A DNA stretch of 59,940 bases from a virus (taxonomy: Duplodnaviria > Caudoviricetes), in IMG/VR virus record IMGVR_UViG_3300027908_000028, positions 1 to 59,940 of that record; one strand, given 5' to 3'. The notes below the pieces were generated by a model. The model was not told where the DNA came from. It made no database searches and saw only the letters and a program-made list of their open reading frames with translations. How positions within the stretch are numbered: the stretch's first letter is position 1; every line of letters starts with the position of its first letter. Made by a program: the position numbers and the translations under genes. This document shows, piece by piece, positions 5,157 through 45,320 of the stretch.

Positions 5157-5178
5157 GACCGAAAGTCGACTTTCGGTC
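5157..5178. repeat. 22-bp palindrome copy 1 (perfect)
   Basis: GACCGAAAGTCGACTTTCGGTC, intergenic. Confidence 0.97.
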
Positions 5179-13774: not shown

Positions 13775-13807
13775 CTGGCATACTGATCGCCGGAGGCGCA
13801 CAAGCCC

Positions 13808-14371
13808 ATGCACAAGAAGCACATCGTTGTTTACGATCCCAAGGGGCAGTGGTGGGAGGGAGCACTTGTCGACGAAGAGCGCGCGCGGCAACTCACTTCG
13901 CGCGATGTCGTGGTGCTCCCTGTCATCCCCGATCTCTTCAAGGTCTCGGGGGTCGGTGGGTATCACAAGCGTTCGTGGGGCGCGGGATGGTCTCTCGATA
14001 GCTCGGTACCGCGCACCGTCTCGCCGATGACGATCTATTGCCTCAAGGATGCGAGTGCCTTCTACTGGGCTGCGCGCATCCTTCCAGAGGCGTCCTTTCT
14101 AGAGGACATGAAGGAAGGTAAGCCGCTCACGGGCTTCGTTCGAATCGTGCCGGACAACAGCCAAGCCATTGTGGCCAAGTGCGGTCTTCAGGCGGAGCAA
14201 CACGTCGAGATCAACACGCTCACGAAGGACAAACTTGTAGGGGACTCGTTCCTTGTTCAAGGAAGCGCGAAGATCAGTGTTCCTGGGGATGGCCACTACG
14301 GCTTTGCGCTCTATGGCTACGCGCCCGGTCTCCGTGTAGTGTGGAGCGCGGTGAGTCAGTCCTTCGAGTGA
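13808..14371 (+). CDS. hypothetical protein
   Basis: 187 aa ORF with GGAGG SD. Confidence 0.7.
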   Translation: MHKKHIVVYDPKGQWWEGALVDEERARQLTSRDVVVLPVIPDLFKVSGVGGYHKRSWGAGWSLDSSVPRTVSPMTIYCLKDASAFYWAARILPEASFLEDMKEGKPLTGFVRIVPDNSQAIVAKCGLQAEQHVEINTLTKDKLVGDSFLVQGSAKISVPGDGHYGFALYGYAPGLRVVWSAVSQSFE

Positions 14372-19446: not shown

Positions 19447-19468
19447 GACCGAAAGTCGACTTTCGGTC
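19447..19468. repeat. 22-bp palindrome copy 3 (perfect)
   Basis: GACCGAAAGTCGACTTTCGGTC immediately before the GGAGG SD of the next gene. Confidence 0.97.
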
Positions 19469-21309: not shown

Positions 21310-21356
21310 TCGAAAACACCGCGTGCGCGTGAAGCGCACGCTTCACGGAGGCGCAC

Positions 21357-22250
21357 ATGCCGGATCCTGTTGCTACGCCGAAGCCTGGAGAGACACCCCC
21401 GATCGTTCGCGACGCGCACGGTCACGAGGTGTCTCTTCAGCAATCCAAGCTCGCGGAGACCGAAACTCCGCCGGCACCCGCTCCCAAGGTCGAGGCGCCG
21501 AAGCCAGCGACGACTACGCAAGCGGCTCCCGCTCCCACGACGCCTACGGAGCCCAAGCGGGCGCGTGTCGGAGTGGACGATGCGATTCCCGAAGACGCCG
21601 ATCTAATCGAGCTTCCTCGGCGAGCGCTCGATTCGCGTCTTGCGCGTCACACGAAGGCGCAGCTCAAGGACCGATTCGGGACGTCCGATCTCGACGAGAT
21701 CAAAACGAAGCTCGACAGACTCGGAGAGCTGGAGAAGGCGGAGGAGGAGCGCAAGCGGGCAGCGATGTCCGAGCAAGAGCGCGTCACCGCTGATCTCGAG
21801 CGAGAGAGACAACTCCGTGTCGATGCAGAGAGACGCGTCCAGCGCATGCAGGAAGAGAAGGTCATCAACAAGACGAACTCTCGTCTAGGCCAACTCGCCG
21901 TCAAGCACGTGCGTTCGAAGTACTCGGACTACGCACTTGGCAAGCTCGCAGCGCACTTGCGAAACGAGTACACGGATGCGGAGCTGATTCGGCTCAAGGA
22001 CTCCACTCTTGACGAGTGGTTCGCGAACTTCGCGAAGGAAAATCCCGAGCTTGCGCGCAAGCCCGCGGAAGCCGCTGCGCCCGTGCCTCCGAAGAAGGTC
22101 CCGCTGACCAACGGTGGCCGGCCGCGGAAGCCGGAGTCCAGTCCATCGAGCGGCACGTCGCAGGCACGGAGCTTCGCTCCGAGCGCTGAGGCTCCCATGT
22201 CCTCGCAAGAGGCGAAGGCGGAAGCGGCCAAACAGGGATACCGCTGGTGA
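21357..22250 (+). CDS. capsid scaffolding protein
   Basis: Pro-rich N-terminus, long charged coiled coil (KRAAMSEQER), immediately before the major capsid gene. Confidence 0.75.
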   Translation: MPDPVATPKPGETPPIVRDAHGHEVSLQQSKLAETETPPAPAPKVEAPKPATTTQAAPAPTTPTEPKRARVGVDDAIPEDADLIELPRRALDSRLARHTKAQLKDRFGTSDLDEIKTKLDRLGELEKAEEERKRAAMSEQERVTADLERERQLRVDAERRVQRMQEEKVINKTNSRLGQLAVKHVRSKYSDYALGKLAAHLRNEYTDAELIRLKDSTLDEWFANFAKENPELARKPAEAAAPVPPKKVPLTNGGRPRKPESSPSSGTSQARSFAPSAEAPMSSQEAKAEAAKQGYRW

Positions 22251-27080: not shown

Positions 27081-29663
27081 ATGGCATCCGTATTCGTAAG
27101 GCGGTTCCTCTTCGATCCCGGGAACAATGTTCTTTTGAACATTGAGAGCGTCAACATCCTGGATCTGACACCGCCGGGATCGATCGCTGGAATCGGAACC
27201 GGAACGGTGCTGATCGTCGGCGAGTTCGAGAACGGACCCTTCAACACGCCAACAGAGGTCAACGGCGCGAGCGACTTGTCCCAGAACTGGGGACTGCTCG
27301 GGTACACCTACGGCGGGGTGCAGGGCTTCAACCCTTGCGCGGCTTCGAGATATGCGGACAACACGCTCGCCGCGGAGAACTGGAACGGCAATGCGTTCGT
27401 TCAGCTGAACGGCAAGCAGTTCGCTCAGCTCGTCGTCTGTCGGGTCAATACCTCCGTGGGTGCGGTGACTCTCACGTCGCGGGCCTTCATCACGGGTAAT
27501 GCCGCATTCCGTTACTTCCTTGCCCCCGGAGATGTGCTCGGGCTCGACGTCGGAGCGGGACCGCAAACAGCGACCTTCACGGCGACCGCTGCAACCGTGA
27601 CCAGCGTCAGCGCAACCTACGCCATGTCGGCGGGGCAGACCGTGACCCTCGGCTACGATGGGGCTCCCAACTTCACGGTCACTTTCCTCGCGAGCGATAC
27701 AACGCAAGCCGCGGTCATCGCGCGGATCAATCAGTACGCTGGATTCACTTTCGCTGCGACGGCGACGGGACAGTTCTCCCTGACCGGCATTCAGCAAGGC
27801 AATCAGGGACAGGTGCGCGTCGTCTCGTCGTCTTCGGGTGGAGTTCTCACGGCACTTGGGCTCACGGTGGGAACGACATTCGGCACGGGCAACGTCGCCA
27901 ACATCCAAGCGGTTACCGAGGCGGAGATTCAGACAGTCGTCCAGGCTGCGGTTTCGAACACGGCCGTCGAGATCGATCCGAACGGCGCGCTCCGGATCTC
28001 CAAGACGACGGCGCTCGCGCAGGACTACGTCTACGTCACGTCAGCGACGACATCGAACGTGCAGACGTCGATGGGATTCGTCCCTGGACAGCAAGGCTCG
28101 AACCTCGGAGTGGGCTTCGTTCTGACGTCCACCGAGACGTACCCGCTCACCAACACGGGAACGATCACCCTCGCGGTCGACGACAACTTCGGTGCGCAGG
28201 GCGTCAACGGCGGAGTTCCTTTCGTTGTCACCATCACGGCGAGCATGGCACTCGCTGCCCTCGTCTCGGCGATCAACACGGCGGCGGGAACTACTGTCGC
28301 ATTCGCAGACTCGACAGGTGGCTTCTCGCTTGTCGGTAAGACCCCCGGCGGACGGATCAACGTTGTCGGCGCGAGCGCGGCCAACGTGCTTTCGCAGATG
28401 GGACTCGCGGTCGGTATCTACAACGGGTCCGGCCTGCCCATCGGGCTCATTCCCGCGGGTACCATCGTTCAGGACGCGTCCGCCGCACACGTCTTCGTGA
28501 CGATGCAGGACGTATCCTTCTCGACTACGGGTGTCACTGTCGGTGGTCTCGTCGCTCCGACGATGGGCCCGTGGTCCGTTCCCATTCGCCACGCGCTCGA
28601 CAACACCCTCGGACTCGGAGCGACGGCGGGAGCCATCGTGGTCCTTCCGAATCCGGTGCTGAGCTACTCCTTGTCGGTCATCAATCCTCAGGTGATCACC
28701 GCAGCACTCTCCGACTCGCAGATCGACGCGCAGTACATCAACGCGCTCAACTCGACGCTCGACATCAACACGGTCGCCAAGACCGTGAACATTCTCTACA
28801 GCGCGCGGCAGTCGAACACGGTTCGCAAGGGTGTGAAGGCGAATGCGCTCAATGCGAGTTCGAACGGGTGCTACGGGCGGGTCGCGGTCATCCGCACGCC
28901 TCTCGGTACGAACAAGAACGTCGCCATGTCGTCCACCGCAGAGCCCGGAGTGGGCGCGTACCGCGATCAGCGCGTCATCTACTGCTGGCCTCAGGGCAAC
29001 ACCTTCGTTCCCATCATCGGTCAGCGGGGGACGGCGGGTGGTCTCGGCTACACGTACAACGGCAACGTGGACGTGGGCGCCGATGGCTTCATGGCCTCGA
29101 TCCTCAGCCAGCTCCCACCCGAGGAGAACCCCGGTCAGGAGACGCCGTTCACCACGGCACTCAACTCACTCGAGTCGAGTCCCAACGCAGCGGGACTGCA
29201 GATCACCGACTACATCAACCTGAAGGCGGCGGGCATCGCTGCCCTCCGGATGGACTCGGGGACGGCGATCTTTCAGTCAGGAGTCACCAGCGTCGATCCG
29301 AACGTCTACCCCTCACTCGTTCGGATCTCGCGTCGGCGCATGGCGGACTTCATTCAGGACAGCCTCGCGCAGCTGGCGAGCGGCTTCGGGAAGAAGCTGT
29401 CTACGAACGCACGCCGTGCGGGGCTCACTTCGGAGATCCGGGCGTTCATGGAACAGCTCTTGAACAAGGGCAATCCGAACGGTCAGCGCATTGCCGGCTA
29501 CACGGTCGACGGTGTCACGGGCAACACGCCGGACACTCTCTCGCTCGGTATCTTCCGGATCATCGTCAACGTCCAAACACTTCCGTCGCTCGACTCGATT
29601 GTTCTTCAGACGACGATCGGCGAGCAAGTCCAAGTGCAAGAGGTCTTTCCCCAGGCGGCGTAG
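27081..29663 (+). CDS. contractile tail sheath protein with insertion domains
   Basis: N-terminal IVGEFENGPFNTP; C-terminal LKAAGI, ISRRRMADFIQDSL, IFRIIVNV; followed by tube gene. Confidence 0.88.
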   Translation: MASVFVRRFLFDPGNNVLLNIESVNILDLTPPGSIAGIGTGTVLIVGEFENGPFNTPTEVNGASDLSQNWGLLGYTYGGVQGFNPCAASRYADNTLAAENWNGNAFVQLNGKQFAQLVVCRVNTSVGAVTLTSRAFITGNAAFRYFLAPGDVLGLDVGAGPQTATFTATAATVTSVSATYAMSAGQTVTLGYDGAPNFTVTFLASDTTQAAVIARINQYAGFTFAATATGQFSLTGIQQGNQGQVRVVSSSSGGVLTALGLTVGTTFGTGNVANIQAVTEAEIQTVVQAAVSNTAVEIDPNGALRISKTTALAQDYVYVTSATTSNVQTSMGFVPGQQGSNLGVGFVLTSTETYPLTNTGTITLAVDDNFGAQGVNGGVPFVVTITASMALAALVSAINTAAGTTVAFADSTGGFSLVGKTPGGRINVVGASAANVLSQMGLAVGIYNGSGLPIGLIPAGTIVQDASAAHVFVTMQDVSFSTTGVTVGGLVAPTMGPWSVPIRHALDNTLGLGATAGAIVVLPNPVLSYSLSVINPQVITAALSDSQIDAQYINALNSTLDINTVAKTVNILYSARQSNTVRKGVKANALNASSNGCYGRVAVIRTPLGTNKNVAMSSTAEPGVGAYRDQRVIYCWPQGNTFVPIIGQRGTAGGLGYTYNGNVDVGADGFMASILSQLPPEENPGQETPFTTALNSLESSPNAAGLQITDYINLKAAGIAALRMDSGTAIFQSGVTSVDPNVYPSLVRISRRRMADFIQDSLAQLASGFGKKLSTNARRAGLTSEIRAFMEQLLNKGNPNGQRIAGYTVDGVTGNTPDTLSLGIFRIIVNVQTLPSLDSIVLQTTIGEQVQVQEVFPQAA

Positions 29664-29689
29664 TTTCGCCCTGAACAGGAGGATTCAAC

Positions 29690-30142
29690 GTGCCCGCGGT
29701 AAAGAACCCCAGTCAGCGCATCAAAGGTCAGGAAGTCGCCATCCTCATCACACAGGACGGCGCTCTTCAAGACACCCTCGTCGACATCCAGAACTTCAAC
29801 CTGGAATCGCAATTCGAGATCAAGTCGCAGGGCTATCTCGGAGAGAAGACCAACCGGAAGGACTTCATCTACAACGGATGCAAGTTCGACATGGAGCTTC
29901 ACCTGCATAAGCAGGACTGGTTCAACTTCCAGCAGTCGCTCAAGGACAAGGCGCAGCGCACCAACCCGGACTCTCAGTTCAACATCACGGGGGTGTTCTC
30001 GTTTCCCAACGGCGATACTCCGACCGTGCTCATTCCGGATGCATCGTTCGGATCCAACCCGACATCGATCTCTAGTCGTGGCGACTACGTGAAGGTCAAG
30101 CTCGAAGGCGAAGCGGACGACTTCACGGCGACCACCAGCTAG
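29690..30142 (+). CDS. tail tube protein
   Basis: 150 aa beta-rich, GYLGE motif, GGAGG SD, immediately after sheath. Confidence 0.8.
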   Translation: MPAVKNPSQRIKGQEVAILITQDGALQDTLVDIQNFNLESQFEIKSQGYLGEKTNRKDFIYNGCKFDMELHLHKQDWFNFQQSLKDKAQRTNPDSQFNITGVFSFPNGDTPTVLIPDASFGSNPTSISSRGDYVKVKLEGEADDFTATTS

Positions 30143-30175
30143 CCCAAAGACCCACCGGAGGCGCACATGCAGTAG

Positions 30176-30197
30176 GACCGAAAGTCAACTTTCGGTC
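30176..30197. repeat. 22-bp palindrome copy 5 (1 mismatch)
   Basis: GACCGAAAGTCAACTTTCGGTC. Confidence 0.95.
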
Positions 30198-30332
30198 GTA
30201 TGAGCTTCCGGCTCGACGCTTTACCGAGTACCTCCCACTCCGTTGTTCGGTCGACGGAGTGAACATGACTCGGGGTGGTTGTGCGCCTCCTGCGTTGGGT
30301 CGGAAGCTCTCTCAACGGAGGCGCACAAGCCC

Positions 30333-30938
30333 ATGGACAACGAAGAAGCAAAGGTAGATACGAAGCCGCGAACGATCGACGAAGCGTTCGCCGTCATGAG
30401 CGACATCGAAGCGAAGGCGCTCGAAGACGACACCTTCACGCAGGCCGAGGAACTCGGCGCCCCTCCCAAGAAAGAGGATGGCGAGAAGAAGCCCAGTCCT
30501 CTCGAGGAAGTCGGATCGAAGCCCATCCCTGACTTCGTGACCTTCCCTTCCGGTTTCCGTGTGCCGCCGGGAAAGGAAGTCATCGTCATGGTCTTTCGGG
30601 CCAAGTGGACCGACAGGCCGGAGCGAGGTGATCGCTGGTGTCTTCTCTGGTCCCTCTCGGATGCAGACGAAAAGCTCGCTCTCAAGAGGACGCGCGGAGA
30701 ATCCGCTCGATCCATCGGGGAGCTGGCCAAGCAATCGATCCGCCTCATCGATGGCAAGCGCGCGGATTGGACGAAGACGCTCGCAGAGGGCTATGACGTC
30801 GATCGTTTCTGGGACGAGATCGGCGCCAAGTGCCGTCAGCGCGTGGTCGATTTCTACCTCAAGATGCACTCGCTCAAGGCGGAAGAGCTGACGGATTTTT
30901 TCGAGAATTGTCTCTTCGTCAGGAAAGCGGGTGGGTAG
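30333..30938 (+). CDS. tail assembly chaperone (gpG-like)
   Basis: between tube and tape measure; GGAGG SD; slippery site near 3' end. Confidence 0.75.
   Translation: MDNEEAKVDTKPRTIDEAFAVMSDIEAKALEDDTFTQAEELGAPPKKEDGEKKPSPLEEVGSKPIPDFVTFPSGFRVPPGKEVIVMVFRAKWTDRPERGDRWCLLWSLSDADEKLALKRTRGESARSIGELAKQSIRLIDGKRADWTKTLAEGYDVDRFWDEIGAKCRQRVVDFYLKMHSLKAEELTDFFENCLFVRKAGG
30896..30902 (+). promoter_or_regulatory. programmed -1 frameshift slippery heptamer T-TTT-TTC
   Basis: GAT TTT TTC in chaperone frame; -1 frame stays open to 31225. Confidence 0.75.
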
Positions 30939-31225
30939 AAGAGGCGTGGCAGACCCCGGATCCGGATCTCGTCGATGACTCGCTCGCAATCCTCGCCGTT
31001 CGAGATGGCTCCGCGGCAGACGTCGTGTGGCATCACATCATCGACATCGATCCGGAAGAGAAGCTCCTCGACACGGCGCGAATGAAGATGGCGCTTGCGC
31101 GTTACGGGCGACAGAGCCTTCTTCAGTGGGACGACGTCCCCGTCAGCGAGATCCGATTCTGGTATGATCGCTTGAAGGAGCTGTTCGAGAACGAGAGATC
31201 CCCAGAAGCCATAAGCGAAGACTGA
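30899..31225 (+). CDS. tail assembly chaperone frameshift extension (gpGT-like)
   Basis: -1 frame ORF 30830..31225 ending 10 nt before the tape measure gene; LARYGRQ..LQW. Confidence 0.7.
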   Translation, partial: FRELSLRQESGWVEEAWQTPDPDLVDDSLAILAVRDGSAADVVWHHIIDIDPEEKLLDTARMKMALARYGRQSLLQWDDVPVSEIRFWYDRLKELFENERSPEAISED

Positions 31226-31235
31226 GAAACCTCCC

Positions 31236-33239
31236 GTGGCCGAAGAACAACAGCAATCCGCTGAACTCCGACTGAAGCTCGTCATCGACGATCAGACGTC
31301 GGAGACCGTGAATCGGCTGCGGGAGAATCTCGGAGGAGTCGAAGAGCACACCCACGCCATCGCGGGAGGCACCCATGAGATCGCGATGGGTGTCTTTGAG
31401 GGCAATGCCTACTGGGAGGCGATGAAGGTCACGATCGAAGGGATCGAGGAAGGCGTCAAAGCCGTCTTCGAAGTCGCCGAAGATCTGACGAAAGAAGCTG
31501 TCCACGCAGCCGACGAAGCGTCGCGGCAACAGCGTGGCATGACGGGCATGCTCCACCTGATGGATCAGGGGCAGCACTCGATGCAAGCCGTCGCCGACTA
31601 CGCGGGTGAGGTTCGTGAGGAACTCGAGAAGGGAGGACTCGCAGCGGGTGTCTCTACGCAGACGATGACGGAGATGTTTTCGACCATCGTTGAGCGTGGG
31701 CACATGTCGAGCGAGGCTGCGAAAGAGCTGACCCTTCAGATGGCGGAGGTCGGCAAGATCACACGTGGAGGAACGCAAGGTCTCGCCGAGGGCTTCGCGA
31801 TGATGGAGCTGGGGATCGTGCGCGCGCGCAATCCGCTCGTACAGCTCATCGCAACGACGGGCATCCTTCACGGCAATGCGAAGGCGGTTGCTGCGCAGCT
31901 CCAGAAGATGACGCCTGAAGATCAGATGAAGAAGGCGGAAGAAGCTGTCCGCCGGCAAGCCGAGTCGCTCAAGTCGGGCGGTGGTGTGAAGCTCACGATG
32001 GGTGAGTACAGGACGAGCTTCGAGGGGTATCGAGAGATGCTCTTCGAGGCCATCGGCAAGCCGATCAACAACACCCTTCTTCCGATGCTCGGGCGCGTGC
32101 AGGCGTGGCTCGCGGAGCACGCAGAGCAGATCAAGGAGTTCGGTCAGCATGTCGGCGAGAAGGTCGCGGAGTGGATCAACAAGATCGCTCCTCTCCTTGA
32201 GCACGCGTTCGACTTCCTCTACTCGCACACCGACGACATGATGAACGCGCTCGAGAAGGGTGCCACGGCTCTCTACAACGCCGTCGAGTACATCGTCGCA
32301 CACAAGGATCTCATCCTGGCTATCGGTGCCGCGGCAGGCATCGGAAAGGGGGCCGGGGCGCTCGCTGGCGCCCTTCCTGGCATGGGGTCCGCCCTAGGCA
32401 GGGGGGTAGGGGCGGTCGGCGGTGTGGGCTCTGCTGTGGGCCTTGGCGTGGGCGCAGCGGCAAACGCCGTGATCTGGGAGCAAGCGGCGGCACAAGCCCA
32501 TGCCCTCGAGAAGGAGTCCGGTCTTTCGTTCATCGATTCCGTCGGTCACATGCTCGGCGGTATCGTTGGCGCAACGGACGACTTCACAACGGCGAGCAAC
32601 AAGATCCAGAACTTCAACGCGATCATGGAGCGCATGCACGATCCGACGGTCAAGACGTCGGCGGAGATGAAGAGACTTCAGGCGCAGATGATCGCGATGT
32701 CGGACTCCATCGCGCAAGGCGGTGCGTCGGCGGAGATGATGGCGATGATGGAGCATGAGAAGCAACTTGCTCAATCACGCATCGATGCCGCTTCTCAGCT
32801 CGAGGCCTTCACCAAGTCGCTCGAGATGGCAGCAGTCGCGTCATACGACTCGGACTTCGCTGGTCCGCAGATGACCCTCGCGGAGAGATTCGGCGACGTC
32901 TACAAACAGATGGCGGGGACCAATGCAGCGGCGGCCGACGACGCGGCGAAGAAGATCCTCGAAGGCAATGTCGCTCTAGTCGAAGCGCTCGCGGGTACGG
33001 GTGCGGACGTTGGAGCCGCGCTCGAGGCGCTTCACAAGATGGTCAAGGGAGACAGTCTCGCCGGCATTGCGGGACGCGGCGGAGCAAACATCAACTTCAA
33101 TGGGGCATCGTTCCAGATCCATCAGGACTTCAAGGATCAAGATCCCGATCGCGTGATCGTCGCCTTCCGTCGCGATCTCATTCGGCATACCTTCGCGCGC
33201 GTGGACGCCAGAACGAACATGGGCTTCGGTGGGCTCTGA
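31236..33239 (+). CDS. tape measure protein
   Basis: LRLKLVIDDQTS start, Ala/Gly/Met-rich helices, follows chaperones. Confidence 0.82.
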   Translation: MAEEQQQSAELRLKLVIDDQTSETVNRLRENLGGVEEHTHAIAGGTHEIAMGVFEGNAYWEAMKVTIEGIEEGVKAVFEVAEDLTKEAVHAADEASRQQRGMTGMLHLMDQGQHSMQAVADYAGEVREELEKGGLAAGVSTQTMTEMFSTIVERGHMSSEAAKELTLQMAEVGKITRGGTQGLAEGFAMMELGIVRARNPLVQLIATTGILHGNAKAVAAQLQKMTPEDQMKKAEEAVRRQAESLKSGGGVKLTMGEYRTSFEGYREMLFEAIGKPINNTLLPMLGRVQAWLAEHAEQIKEFGQHVGEKVAEWINKIAPLLEHAFDFLYSHTDDMMNALEKGATALYNAVEYIVAHKDLILAIGAAAGIGKGAGALAGALPGMGSALGRGVGAVGGVGSAVGLGVGAAANAVIWEQAAAQAHALEKESGLSFIDSVGHMLGGIVGATDDFTTASNKIQNFNAIMERMHDPTVKTSAEMKRLQAQMIAMSDSIAQGGASAEMMAMMEHEKQLAQSRIDAASQLEAFTKSLEMAAVASYDSDFAGPQMTLAERFGDVYKQMAGTNAAAADDAAKKILEGNVALVEALAGTGADVGAALEALHKMVKGDSLAGIAGRGGANINFNGASFQIHQDFKDQDPDRVIVAFRRDLIRHTFARVDARTNMGFGGL

Positions 33240-43626: not shown

Positions 43627-43646
43627 ATTCATAGGAGACGCACACC

Positions 43647-45320
43647 ATGGCCGGCGGACAGAAGAACGTAACGATCAACACTCAAGAGCGCGCGGTCTCT
43701 GTCGACATCAATCGACTCCAGTCCTTCATGAACGCGAGCCAAGCTGAGGCCATGCGTTACCTGATGGACGCGTCTCTCGGATCCGACGATCTGGGTGCGG
43801 GCGGCGTCATCACGGAATACAGCACGCTCAACACACCACTGCAGGCGGAGATCTTGAACGGCATTCAGGTCCAGCCTCAGATCGGATCGCTCAACATCAT
43901 TATCGCTCCGGGTGTCGTGCAGGCCATTGCTCCGGACGGAAGTGAAACACCCGTCGGCTCCCCGGCACTCGGTGACTCGAGCTACTACAAGTACATCCGT
44001 GACGTCGGAGTTCAGACGCTCGGTGCGCTCGCGATGACGCCTAACAGCTCCGGTCAGATCCGGATCGACGTGATCGAGTGTCAGGTTGCAAGCCTTGTCT
44101 CCGAGACCGACAACCGCGACGTCTTCAATCCGTCGACTGGACTCTTCGCAGCGTCAACCGTGACCAAGGCCACCCAAGACGGGCTCTCCTACCGCGTACG
44201 CGCGGGCACACCGGGGAGCGGATTCCCCGGAAGCGTCAACGGTTGGCTCCCCCTGGCCGTTGCGAGCGTTCCGACGGGCACGACCACCAACGACACGATC
44301 ACGTTCTGGGACGTGCGTCCGCTCGTTTCGGCGCGCATCATTCCTCCGTTCAATACGTACCTCAGCACTATCAGCCGTCAGCACGTCACGGGGCGAGTCG
44401 ACTCCACGACGACCGCAGGCAAGTCGCTTCTGATGGCAGCGATGGACGTTCCTGGGATCTTTCCCAGCTCGACACGGCTTGGAGGAGCGTCCGGACGAGG
44501 AACCCCGGGATCGGACATCGGTGGTACACAAGTCGATCTCCAAGATACGGCGAACGTGTCCGGGACGTTCTCCACGGGAGCACCTTGCTACCTCTACTTG
44601 CTCGAGCCGTTCGGACTCCCGCGGTGGGCGCGCTACACCGATGCAGTCAGCGGATCTCGCCTCCCACGCAGTCCACGCGGCATTCTCGTTCTGTCGGCGA
44701 CCAAGCCTACATACAGCGGGATCCCCAGTGCGCCCATTGCGCTTCCGTCTTCGACGGGACTCGCTGGCACGGCGTCATCCGGAGTCTGCGTCGTCGCCGG
44801 ATTCGCCGTCTCGGGCTCGGGTGGGATGGGCAACATCATCATGGATGGCCGCGTGCAGTGGCCATCCACTCCTTGGCCGTCTGCCGCGGGAGCAACGGGC
44901 GCGATCACCGGCACAACGGGTGTCATCTGGAGTCTCGCCGAGAACACAACGCATCCCCCGAATGCGCGCGGGCTTCACATCGGCATCGGAGCAAACCTCA
45001 ACATCTCGGGCTCACCTCCGGCGCTTCTCTTCAATCCTCAGATCCAACTTCAAGACGCGTCCAATCACGTTTTCTGGGAGTCGGGTTACAGCTCGGCGTC
45101 GACTCTATCCGCGATGGCCTTCACGCTTTACGACACGCCCACGTCCACGGGTGGCATCGTGAGCTTCTCGGCGCGTCTGCGGATCCCGCTCATCTCGGAC
45201 TTCCCTTCGCCGTCCGGAGGCCCGTACCAACTCGTTCTCAATTGGAACGCAACGGGCTCCGGATTTGCCGGAGTCGGTTCACCCGCGCTTCTTTGGGTCG
45301 AGGGCTACGAGCTGAACTAG
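43647..45320 (+). CDS. tail fibre-associated protein
   Basis: RIDVI, GWLPLA...VP, I...D.RP anchor-type motifs; last gene of the tail operon. Confidence 0.65.
   Translation: MAGGQKNVTINTQERAVSVDINRLQSFMNASQAEAMRYLMDASLGSDDLGAGGVITEYSTLNTPLQAEILNGIQVQPQIGSLNIIIAPGVVQAIAPDGSETPVGSPALGDSSYYKYIRDVGVQTLGALAMTPNSSGQIRIDVIECQVASLVSETDNRDVFNPSTGLFAASTVTKATQDGLSYRVRAGTPGSGFPGSVNGWLPLAVASVPTGTTTNDTITFWDVRPLVSARIIPPFNTYLSTISRQHVTGRVDSTTTAGKSLLMAAMDVPGIFPSSTRLGGASGRGTPGSDIGGTQVDLQDTANVSGTFSTGAPCYLYLLEPFGLPRWARYTDAVSGSRLPRSPRGILVLSATKPTYSGIPSAPIALPSSTGLAGTASSGVCVVAGFAVSGSGGMGNIIMDGRVQWPSTPWPSAAGATGAITGTTGVIWSLAENTTHPPNARGLHIGIGANLNISGSPPALLFNPQIQLQDASNHVFWESGYSSASTLSAMAFTLYDTPTSTGGIVSFSARLRIPLISDFPSPSGGPYQLVLNWNATGSGFAGVGSPALLWVEGYELN

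Follow-up and report, generated by a model that had tools for sequence, protein, structure and literature searches.

Genomic context of the element

The stretch of DNA analysed here (hereafter the window) is a linear IMG/VR virus record of 59,940 bp, IMGVR_UViG_3300027908_000028, that is approximately 64% complete and has a G+C content of about 0.60. Its predicted tail tube gene (150 aa, 29690-30142) and its putative tail assembly chaperone gene (201 aa, 30333-30938) are separated by a spacer of 190 nt that holds a structured RNA element, the subject of this study. The parts of the element, the genes that flank it and the genes g187 and g297 (below) lie on the + strand. One strand of the element is the Shine-Dalgarno (SD) sequence of the chaperone gene, a second resembles an SD sequence, and a third is complementary to both.

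The tube gene ends in a TAG stop codon (30140-30142), 14 nt 5' of the GGAGG in the SD look-alike, which we call D (GGAGGCGCACA, 30157-30167). D is followed by a two-codon open reading frame (ORF), ATG-CAG-TAG (30167-30175), with the ATG 5 nt past the GGAGG, and by the hairpin H1 (30176-30197), formed by GACCGAAAGTCAACTTTCGGTC, one copy of a genome-wide 22-bp palindrome. The helix P2 is composed of a 5' arm (GAGCTTCCGGCTCGACGC, 30202-30219) and a 3' arm (GCGTTGGGTCGGAAGCTC, 30292-30309), and a further hairpin, H3 (CCGAGT..CACTCCGTTG / CGACGGAGTG..ACTCGG, 30224-30273), sits atop it. The anti-SD strand, A (TTGTGCGCCTCC, 30279-30290), lies between H3 and the P2 3' arm, and the extended SD of the chaperone gene, S (GGAGGCGCACAA, 30317-30328), precedes the ATG at 30333. 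Both arms of P2 were found as an inverted repeat and by constrained folding, and a covariance model (below) aligns the 5' arm with the P2 of relatives. H3 was found by repeat search and folding.

A preliminary description of this locus, made from the window's letters, proposed a two-state RNA switch in which A pairs either with a decoy ribosome-binding site (RBS) that heads the two-codon ORF or with the real RBS. Reading the sequence and an independent repeat search showed all of its coordinates to be correct to the base. Complementarity was recovered over 11 nt at 100% for D:A and over 12 nt at 100% for A:S (30279-30290 / 30317-30328), and D and S form a direct repeat of 18 nt that is 89% identical. 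The proposed GACCCA/TGGGTC extension was recovered as 30149-30161 / 30289-30301 (13 nt, 85%) and the CCGAGT...ACTCGG stem as 30224-30243 / 30254-30273. The preliminary description had made no use of the 18-nt inverted repeat 30202-30219 / 30292-30309, which is P2. The 11-mer common to D and S (GGAGGCGCACA, at 30317-30327 in S) faces TGTGCGCCTCC in A (30280-30290), and with at most one mismatch it occurs seven times on both strands of the window versus 2.15 expected, a count reached in 1 of 100 shuffles. Five copies are exact, three of them within 171 nt at the element, and A is the sole exact reverse-complement copy. We judge the observation to lie far beyond chance.

Conservation of the element among related phages

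Relatives of the tube protein were taken from IMG/VR (70 loci) and from metagenomes (the best 80 of 138), and 111 unique loci were left after removal of duplicates; they are cited by working handles where they need to be told apart. No prophage relatives of the tube protein were found among 185,579 species genomes. The tube-chaperone spacer is 20-50 nt long in distant relatives, and in closer ones it is 100-260 nt long or contains inserted genes. In the closer relatives a GGAGGCGCG-type strand comes soon after the tube stop, followed by GGGUGCGCCUCCU and then by GGAGGCGC[A/G]C a short way before the chaperone ATG. D, A and S thus recur in relatives whose tube proteins are 40-82% identical, with matched changes on both strands. 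The preliminary description had staked its proposal on conservation of this triple complementarity; that test falls in favour of the finding, and its central idea holds.

We defined 20 elements, in the window and 19 relatives. When D, A and S are held single-stranded, all 20 fold as [D]-H1-P2-H3-[A]-P2'-[S]-ATG. A hairpin in the H3 position occurs in all of them, with variable sequence and length. H1 is optional: it is absent from L088, L082 and L102, and other relatives have unrelated hairpins there, so that the palindrome hairpin of the preliminary description is specific to the window. D is present in 17 elements, in 16 of them 7-17 nt after the tube stop, and is missing in L089, L100 and L144. 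L009 has A and S without D, with S heading an inserted gene, and L008 has D and A followed by inserted genes. The core of A, GTGCGCCTCC, is nearly invariant, and conserved unpaired positions are confined to D, A, S and the UACGGG / CCCACC base of P2; the P2 3' arm ends in CCCACC in most relatives, and the window is without this sequence.

A covariance model of P2 and H3 (R1), built from nine relatives with the window left out, finds the window at 30140-30335 with 32.3 bits (E 6.8e-4, 465 kb searched), and the P2, H3, A and S of the window align with those of the relatives, which makes the window a member of the motif. The same search added two further members (L104 and L080). R1 missed the divergent elements of G007, G008 and G009, which were found by reading the sequence downstream of the tube gene. 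Among unique loci with at least 250 nt downstream, R1 matches 16 of the 26 with tube identity of at least 50% (5 more are partial and 5 show nothing) and 1 of the 71 below 50%.

P2 is the only helix with heavy covariation. On a 21-sequence model alignment, 15 of its 16 pairs have compensatory changes, and 91.8% of cells are paired, versus 42-50% when the partner is slid; none of 500 shuffles reaches the observed values. This alignment was fitted to P2 and favours it, and independent evidence from RNAalifold and the repeat search agrees: RNAalifold recovers P2 unaided, with no covariance model, from a nine-sequence MAFFT alignment. From a plain MAFFT alignment of all 20 elements it recovers A:S only, with the other helices misaligned.

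As the preliminary description had supposed, we found no account of such an element. Rfam 15 gave no match at gathering score in the whole window, and at E up to 10 the only match in 30000-30450 was a 10-bit long non-coding RNA on the opposite strand; a literature search returned no description, and blastn of 29000-32000 against a phage GenBank collection had no match. For 29000-31500, five soil DNA sequencing runs were found, two of them possibly the source, and no RNA run. An IMG/VR scan for GTGCGCCTCC-N20-50-GGAGGCGC gave 68 stretches, of which only two match R1, both on contigs already in the set; the remaining stretches look like chance. We conclude that the tube-chaperone boundary in a clade of soil phages with contractile tails holds a real structured RNA, conserved in at least 20 related phage contigs and apparently not described before.

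This pattern bears on the possibility that the spacer has no RNA function, and consists of relic RBS cassettes or a DNA-level protein motif, or that it is a ligand-sensing riboswitch. The near identity of the window's D and S to the RBS cassettes of two other genes, spacer and start codon included, would suit relics, as would the position of the spacer in a hot spot of gene insertion. We nevertheless consider the whole group highly improbable: P2 covaries and contains G.U pairs that hold for the sense strand alone, the element persists in relatives whose tube proteins are as little as 40% identical, and D and S differ systematically where A has U. A ligand, which the preliminary description had allowed as a trigger, is unlikely, given that the hairpins vary in sequence and length, that junction nucleotides are not conserved beyond D, A, S and the base of P2, and that Rfam has no match. 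Separately, duplication of a target site by a small mobile insert was considered as the origin of the D/S repeat and was ruled out, as D, A and S are kept despite quite different inner sequences.

Competing pairings of the anti-SD strand

A can pair with S or with D, and these two pairings are mutually exclusive, the arrangement that defines SD / anti-SD / anti-anti-SD devices. On the 21-sequence alignment, D:A comprises 11 pairs with 89.7% of cells paired and A:S comprises 12 pairs with 87.3%. Covariation in relatives had been suggested as a check by the preliminary description; besides the compensatory changes of P2, three pairs each of D:A and A:S are changed on both sides. One U of A faces G in D (13 G.U and 3 A-U) and A in S (12 U-A and 5 U-G), a pattern that fits RNA pairing on the sense strand.

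Lineage-specific changes follow the same logic. All three strands have changed together in L082 (GGCAC in D and S, GUGCC in A) and in L104 (GGCUC in D and S, GAGCC in A), and matched variants also occur in L103 (AGAGG / CCUCU) and in L008 and L009 (CGGAGG / CCUCCG). In L012 the S:A pairing is extended to 14 bp through a lineage-specific flank (GCGCGAAC / GUUCGCGC), and in L095 to 16 bp through another (GCGCAAAAC / GUUUUGCGC). In L080 all three strands have been rewritten and overlapping complementarity is retained. Duplex energies range from -18.8 to -30.2 kcal/mol for D:A and from -16.7 to -33.2 kcal/mol for A:S, with D:A the stronger in 9 of 17 elements and A:S in 8, and the two pairings are about equally stable.

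The name given to D in the preliminary description is only partly apt. D does pair with A and is conserved, but its likeness to an RBS is not needed: in G007 and G008 it has no GGAGG, yet forms 18 bp and 17 bp, respectively, with A plus the flank of A. The two-codon ORF is likewise not conserved: 5 of 17 elements have a start codon 3-13 nt past D, at the head of ORFs of 2, 16, 16, 20 and 20 codons. Because the conserved property of D is its pairing with A, D is better read as an anti-anti-SD strand than as a decoy RBS, and its resemblance to an RBS probably arises mainly from the need for complementarity to an anti-SD.

A different role for D would be that of a true tether or standby site, at which ribosomes leaving the tube gene, or free 30S subunits, are held and passed on to S under the control of A; alternatively, a phage protein could bind the extended SD as a translational operator. 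The location of D 7-17 nt after the tube stop in nearly all elements that have it would suit a standby site, H1 and P2 bring D and S close in space in the predicted fold, and the D of the window is identical to a working RBS with a 5-nt spacing to its ATG. The recurrence of the extended SD at selected genes would fit as well. However, D is absent from four members (L089, L100, L144 and L009), lacks GGAGG and still pairs with A in three (G007, G008 and L080), and is not followed by conserved start codons, and the binding protein of an operator is hypothetical. We regard both versions as quite improbable.

Predicted folding and a third state

The region 30140-30345 has a minimum free energy of -94 kcal/mol (z -5.1), and none of 200 shuffles folds as well. 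All 20 elements fold better than their own shuffles, with z from -0.87 to -7.4 and a median of -3.3. In the window, the OFF fold of the preliminary description, in which A pairs with S, is the minimum free energy fold (-94.0 kcal/mol), and A:S has a probability of 0.88 in the pseudoknot-free ensemble. The enforced ON fold, in which A pairs with D, reaches -91.3 kcal/mol and a fold with P2 enforced reaches -92.6 kcal/mol, so that three folds lie within 2.7 kcal/mol. The exclusive choice between D:A and A:S that was proposed for a two-state switch stands, but P2 alone competes as a third state. The outer extension of the ON fold (TGGGTC, 30296-30301) and the inner stem of the OFF fold (GTTGGG, 30294-30299) did not survive comparison, as they are not conserved and overlap the covarying 3' arm of P2.

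The predicted fold changes as the transcript grows. In 16 of 17 elements, the minimum free energy fold of a transcript that stops just past A contains D:A; when the transcript also includes the P2 3' arm, P2 takes over and leaves A unpaired in 10 of 17, and for the complete element A:S is the winning pairing in the window and L095 only. Among the ON, OFF and P2 states, none is consistently favoured by pseudoknot-free energies. As for geometry, P2 is 15-25 bp long, A lies 0-4 nt from its 3' arm, S lies 2-18 nt past that arm, and D is 4-9 nt from P2 in some elements. On steric grounds, an intact P2 looks unlikely to coexist with full A:S pairing, or with D:A where D is only 4-9 nt from P2.

Genes flanking the element

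Sequence-only searches with the tube and chaperone proteins, and with those of the two other genes discussed below, were weak or empty, and assignments were made by structure, position and genetic signals. An AlphaFold model of the 150-aa protein, built on 20 relatives, has a pLDDT of 76.6, and its best structural matches are the tube proteins of diffocin, phiCD508, AFP, PVC, cyanophage A-1(L) and R2 pyocin (TM 0.5-0.68, E 1.5e-6 and weaker); PF09393 is weakly matched by 3 of the 20 relatives. By its modelled fold, the protein is assigned as a tail tube protein of the contractile-system type. Upstream lies a sheath-like ORF (860 aa, 27081-29663), whose Pfam sheath matches are weak and below the cut-off.

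The 201-aa protein has no Pfam or PHROG match. Its gene, whose N-terminus agrees with those of relatives, lies between the tube gene and a tape measure gene (667 aa, 31236-33239, phrog_167). It contains an in-phase slippery heptamer for -1 frameshifting, T_TTT_TTC (30896-30902), and the -1 frame (30830-31225) is open to 31225, giving an extension of 107 codons whose end is 11 nt short of the start of the tape measure gene. An in-phase TTTTTTN is present 37-46 nt 5' of the stop in 16 of 17 complete ORFs of the orthologous family, and the -1 extensions are 104-116 codons long in 15 orthologues and 48 codons long in L100. Frameshift signals of this kind are what we take to mark tail chaperones. 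On the basis of position and of the slippery site and extension kept in orthologues, we assign the 201-aa ORF as the tail assembly chaperone (G/GT type), in agreement with the preliminary description.

Complete genomes of relatives are 82-101 kb long, with direct terminal repeats in two. Inserted genes are concentrated at the tube-chaperone junction, a hot spot for them; some lie on the reverse strand, and they are placed before, within or after the RNA element (examples are L008:3439-4961, L009:3439-4160, L015:3433-3800, L017:3451-3950, L283 and L284).

The 22-bp palindrome that forms H1 in the window (GACCGAAAGTCGACTTTCGGTC) has 11 sites there with at most two mismatches, against an expectation of 0, starting at 5157, 10187, 19447, 22259, 30176, 37639, 43605, 48727, 51419, 57469 and 59012 (22 nt each). 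The sites we looked at are intergenic, and those at 19447 and 43605 lie directly before an RBS. The contig of L010 (L198) has a different palindrome, CCCAAACCCGGGTTTGGG, in three copies within 12.6 kb. The high sequence identity of the copies suggests protein-binding sites rather than mere terminators.

A model for translational control of the chaperone gene

We favour, with modest confidence, a reading in which the spacer between tube and chaperone acts in cis as a conserved leader RNA, exerting three-strand SD / anti-SD / anti-anti-SD control over translation initiation of the chaperone. In this model A (UUGUGCGCCUCC), at the far end of P2, could pair with either S or D. Pairing with S would mask the extended SD, turn translation off and thereby lower chaperone synthesis, and pairing of A with D would leave S free and translation on. 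As P2 would compete with both pairings, three states are expected, namely D:A, P2 alone and A:S, with D:A predicted to be the first structure on the growing transcript. Our best guess is that the balance is shifted by the order of folding during transcription and by ribosomes terminating on the tube gene, 7-17 nt upstream of D, and in a minority of members ribosomes starting at D might add to this shift. The control probably extends to the module of frameshift extension and tape measure, because the chaperone has a frameshift extension and abuts the tape measure gene. The function in translational control, the trigger and any action on other genes are inferred from sequence comparison and predicted folding.

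Several observations weigh against this reading. The main weakness of a simple masking model is energetic: enforced A:S lies 4.5-15 kcal/mol above the minimum in most relatives, with P2 winning, in pseudoknot-free energies, and strong masking of S at equilibrium is confined to the window, L095, L089 and L144. Full A:S pairing probably requires P2 to open, because P2 is long (15-25 bp) and only 2-18 nt from S. D, A and S are largely invariant, and formal covariation in their pairings is thin, at the three pairs each noted above, in an alignment fitted to P2. The spacing of 7-17 nt between D and the tube stop is too loose for a strict steric mechanism, and the gene ahead of D in L095 is on the reverse strand. 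In related phages that lack the element, such as L098, the chaperone gene has a strong free SD, which implies that repression is not obligatory. Finally, L008, G007 and G008 keep D, P2 and A even though an inserted gene splits them from the chaperone, and A therefore has some value apart from an adjacent S.

Another possible role for the element is mainly that of a device of mRNA processing or stability. P2-H3 could be cut in an RNase III-like manner or could block an exonuclease, such that the abundant sheath-tube message gets its own stable 3' end and is split from the chaperone and tape measure message; D:A would then close the 3' structure, and A:S would act on the uncut form only. The predicted structure is suggestive, as P2 is stacked under H3, with a loop of 13-20 nt on the 3' side only, and the length of P2 plus H3 fits the approximately two helical turns of RNase III-type hairpins. 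D, P2 and A persist right after the tube gene in the three members in which other genes follow, and relatives without the element (e.g. L098 and L021) still have a strong GC-rich hairpin at the tube stop. Processing, however, leaves unexplained both the conserved sequence of A and the 9-16 nt over which S remains complementary to A through lineage-specific changes, and we consider it rather unlikely to be the main function. Nor is there a U-tract terminator: the + strand from 29600 to 30600 has no terminator-like site and no sigma-70-like promoter. An intrinsic terminator or attenuator was ruled out on the same grounds, as no GC-rich hairpin with a U tract occurs in that region.

The extended SD at other genes

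The 11-mer of D and S also serves as the RBS of two other genes in the window. The first, g187 (187 aa, 13808-14371), has it at 13792-13802, within a 20-mer (CGGAGGCGCACAAGCCCATG) that is identical at S, spacer and ATG included. The second, g297 (297 aa, 21357-22250), has it at 21347-21357, within a 15-mer (CGGAGGCGCACATGC) common to D. A single-protein scan for relatives of g187 found none, in a search that did not cover four metagenome records in full. g297 lies after the portal and head-morphogenesis genes, and its nearest named Atlas clusters are scaffolding proteins, which we treat as a lead only. In front of the extended SD of g297, 5 nt upstream, is a hairpin (GCGTGCGC-GTGAA-GCGCACGC, 21321-21341), whose 5' arm, as judged by eye, contains GTGCGC, a hexamer also present in A; the hairpin could provide local masking of that SD. 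The motif also occurs with one mismatch, as GGAGACGCACA (43634-43646), at the head of the gene 43647-45320 (557 aa) and 7 nt after a copy of the palindrome; the longest uninterrupted helix of this copy with A is only 6 bp.

In the whole genomes of relatives, GGAGGCGC[A/G]C recurs as the RBS of a few genes, and it was seen only in genomes with A. G003 has orthologues of both g187 and g297, at 37-39% protein identity, and keeps GGAGGCGCAC-ATG at each. The g187 orthologues of G001-G004 all have the extended SD, and those of g297 have it in G002, G003 and G004 and a plain SD in G001 and G005. This conservation of an RBS-overlapping sequence at a gene subset and its orthologues is the pattern by which start-associated sequences are recognized. 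Some variants are shared within a genome: GCGCGAA is common to S, A and g297 in G002, and GCGCAA to D, S, A and g297 in G004.

For g187, we compared 13 IMG/VR loci and the window, of which 12 genomes were scored (L268 and L272 were left out). The extended SD at g187 coincides with an A motif after the tube gene in 9 of 9 genomes (the window, G001-G004, the L009 contig, G007, G008 and G009), and a plain SD at g187 coincides with the lack of A within 330 nt of the tube stop in 3 of 3 (the L016 contig, G010 and G011), in a set of genomes that are not phylogenetically independent. Of the members with a gene inserted between A and the chaperone, G007 and G008 have retained the extended SD at the chaperone, and L008 has a plain SD there. 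Control RBSs in the window (those of the tube, sheath, tape measure and portal genes) have 5-9 bp of complementarity to A, off its core. An energy scan of the window with A ranks the RBS of g187 as the best non-self match, but with 1277 windows at or below -17 kcal/mol such a scan is not discriminating in a GC-rich genome.

These data raise the possibility that A is the active end of a phage-encoded anti-SD riboregulator, in which P2-H3-A, either as part of the tail mRNA or after excision from it, would pair with all of the private extended SDs, GGAGGCGC[A/G]C. The chaperone would be its target in cis, and g187 and the scaffold-like g297 would be targets in trans, with D as a built-in antagonist; this would extend, and not exclude, cis control of the chaperone. 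The exact 11-mer at 13808 and 21357 besides S and D, the off-core complementarity of the control RBSs, the orthologues in G003, the lineage variants common to distant copies, the coincidence of A with the extended SD at g187, and the retention of A without an adjacent S in L008, G007 and G008 would all be accounted for. Yet the split of nine against three genomes is not phylogenetically independent, G009 shows 7 bp only, g297 orthologues in G001 and G005 have plain SDs, the energy scan has a dense background, and P2-H3-A as a separate RNA is hypothetical. The copies in the window also have spacer bases in common (AAGCCCATG and ATGC) with which A is unable to pair, which points to copying of RBS cassettes; because these shared spacers lie outside the reach of A, cassette copying could explain part of the extended-SD pattern. 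We regard the riboregulator as unlikely.

A further step, which we rate as somewhat less likely still, would be a private translation code, in which the single structured anti-SD represses the chaperone, scaffold-like and 187-aa genes in cis and in trans, restrained by D until ribosomes that complete the tube gene release it. If true, head and tail assembly factors would both be tied to the rate of tube synthesis.

Comparison with known systems

Tailed phages need hundreds of tube subunits and few chaperone and tape measure molecules, all from neighbouring genes, and to our knowledge it is mostly unknown how this step in output is set, beyond frameshifting. The element described here is a sizeable conserved RNA, with the logic of a switch, at exactly this boundary.

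Leader-peptide attenuation of ermC and cat uses alternative hairpins upstream of a masked SD, and a ribosome on the first strand re-sets the pairing. The phage element differs in that it has no conserved leader ORF (ORFs of 2-20 codons start after D in 5 of 17 elements) and so does not belong to this class, and in that its first strand follows the stop codon of a full-length structural gene. Other phage devices include the two-codon minigenes of lambda "bar" and the RNase III processing hairpins of T7-type phages. D with ATG-CAG-TAG in the window is, like the lambda bar minigene, a strong SD with a two-codon ORF, although it is not conserved in relatives, and P2-H3 with its one-sided loop resembles, as predicted, an intergenic processing hairpin of the T7 type.

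In RNA phages, the leader of the MS2 maturation gene and the coupling of coat and replicase are examples of long-range or kinetic control of an RBS. As in those phages, a phage SD may here be masked by a distant complementary strand, and folding order and ribosomes of the upstream cistron could decide access. The present element, known from sequence alone, lies by contrast in the tail operon of a DNA phage and has a dedicated anti-anti-SD strand. An interplay of ribosome-binding sites is also described for Qbeta in the available part of PMC2978339.

The closest parallel in pairing logic is with translational riboswitches. According to the portion of the thiM study available to us (PMC2018614), its expression platform follows SD / anti-SD / anti-anti-SD logic, and there, as here, three strands compete, with the anti-SD paired to the SD in the off state and to an upstream anti-anti-SD in the on state. 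Unlike such platforms, the phage element has no recognizable aptamer or conserved ligand pocket and lies inside a late operon between two structural genes. Its anti-SD sits atop a helix of 15-25 bp that competes with both pairings, the pairings span 9-16 bp versus the 4 given in that portion of the source, and its extended SD recurs at other genes.

That recurrence resembles, in kind only, the start-associated sequences (SAS) and extended SAS (ESAS) of Cluster K mycobacteriophages, whose function is left open in the accessible text of PMC3203893. In both cases a chosen subset of genes is preceded by a conserved sequence that is joined to the RBS and persists at orthologues, with inverted repeats near some copies, as far as that text describes them. 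Unlike the Cluster K sequences as described there, the extended SD has a single complementary copy, A, which is part of a covarying RNA structure and whose changes accompany those of the start-associated sequence. The link of the element to an extended SD shared by other assembly genes could explain phage start-associated sequences, whose function, by the same account, has been open since 2011, and phages might thereby address a subset of their own messages.

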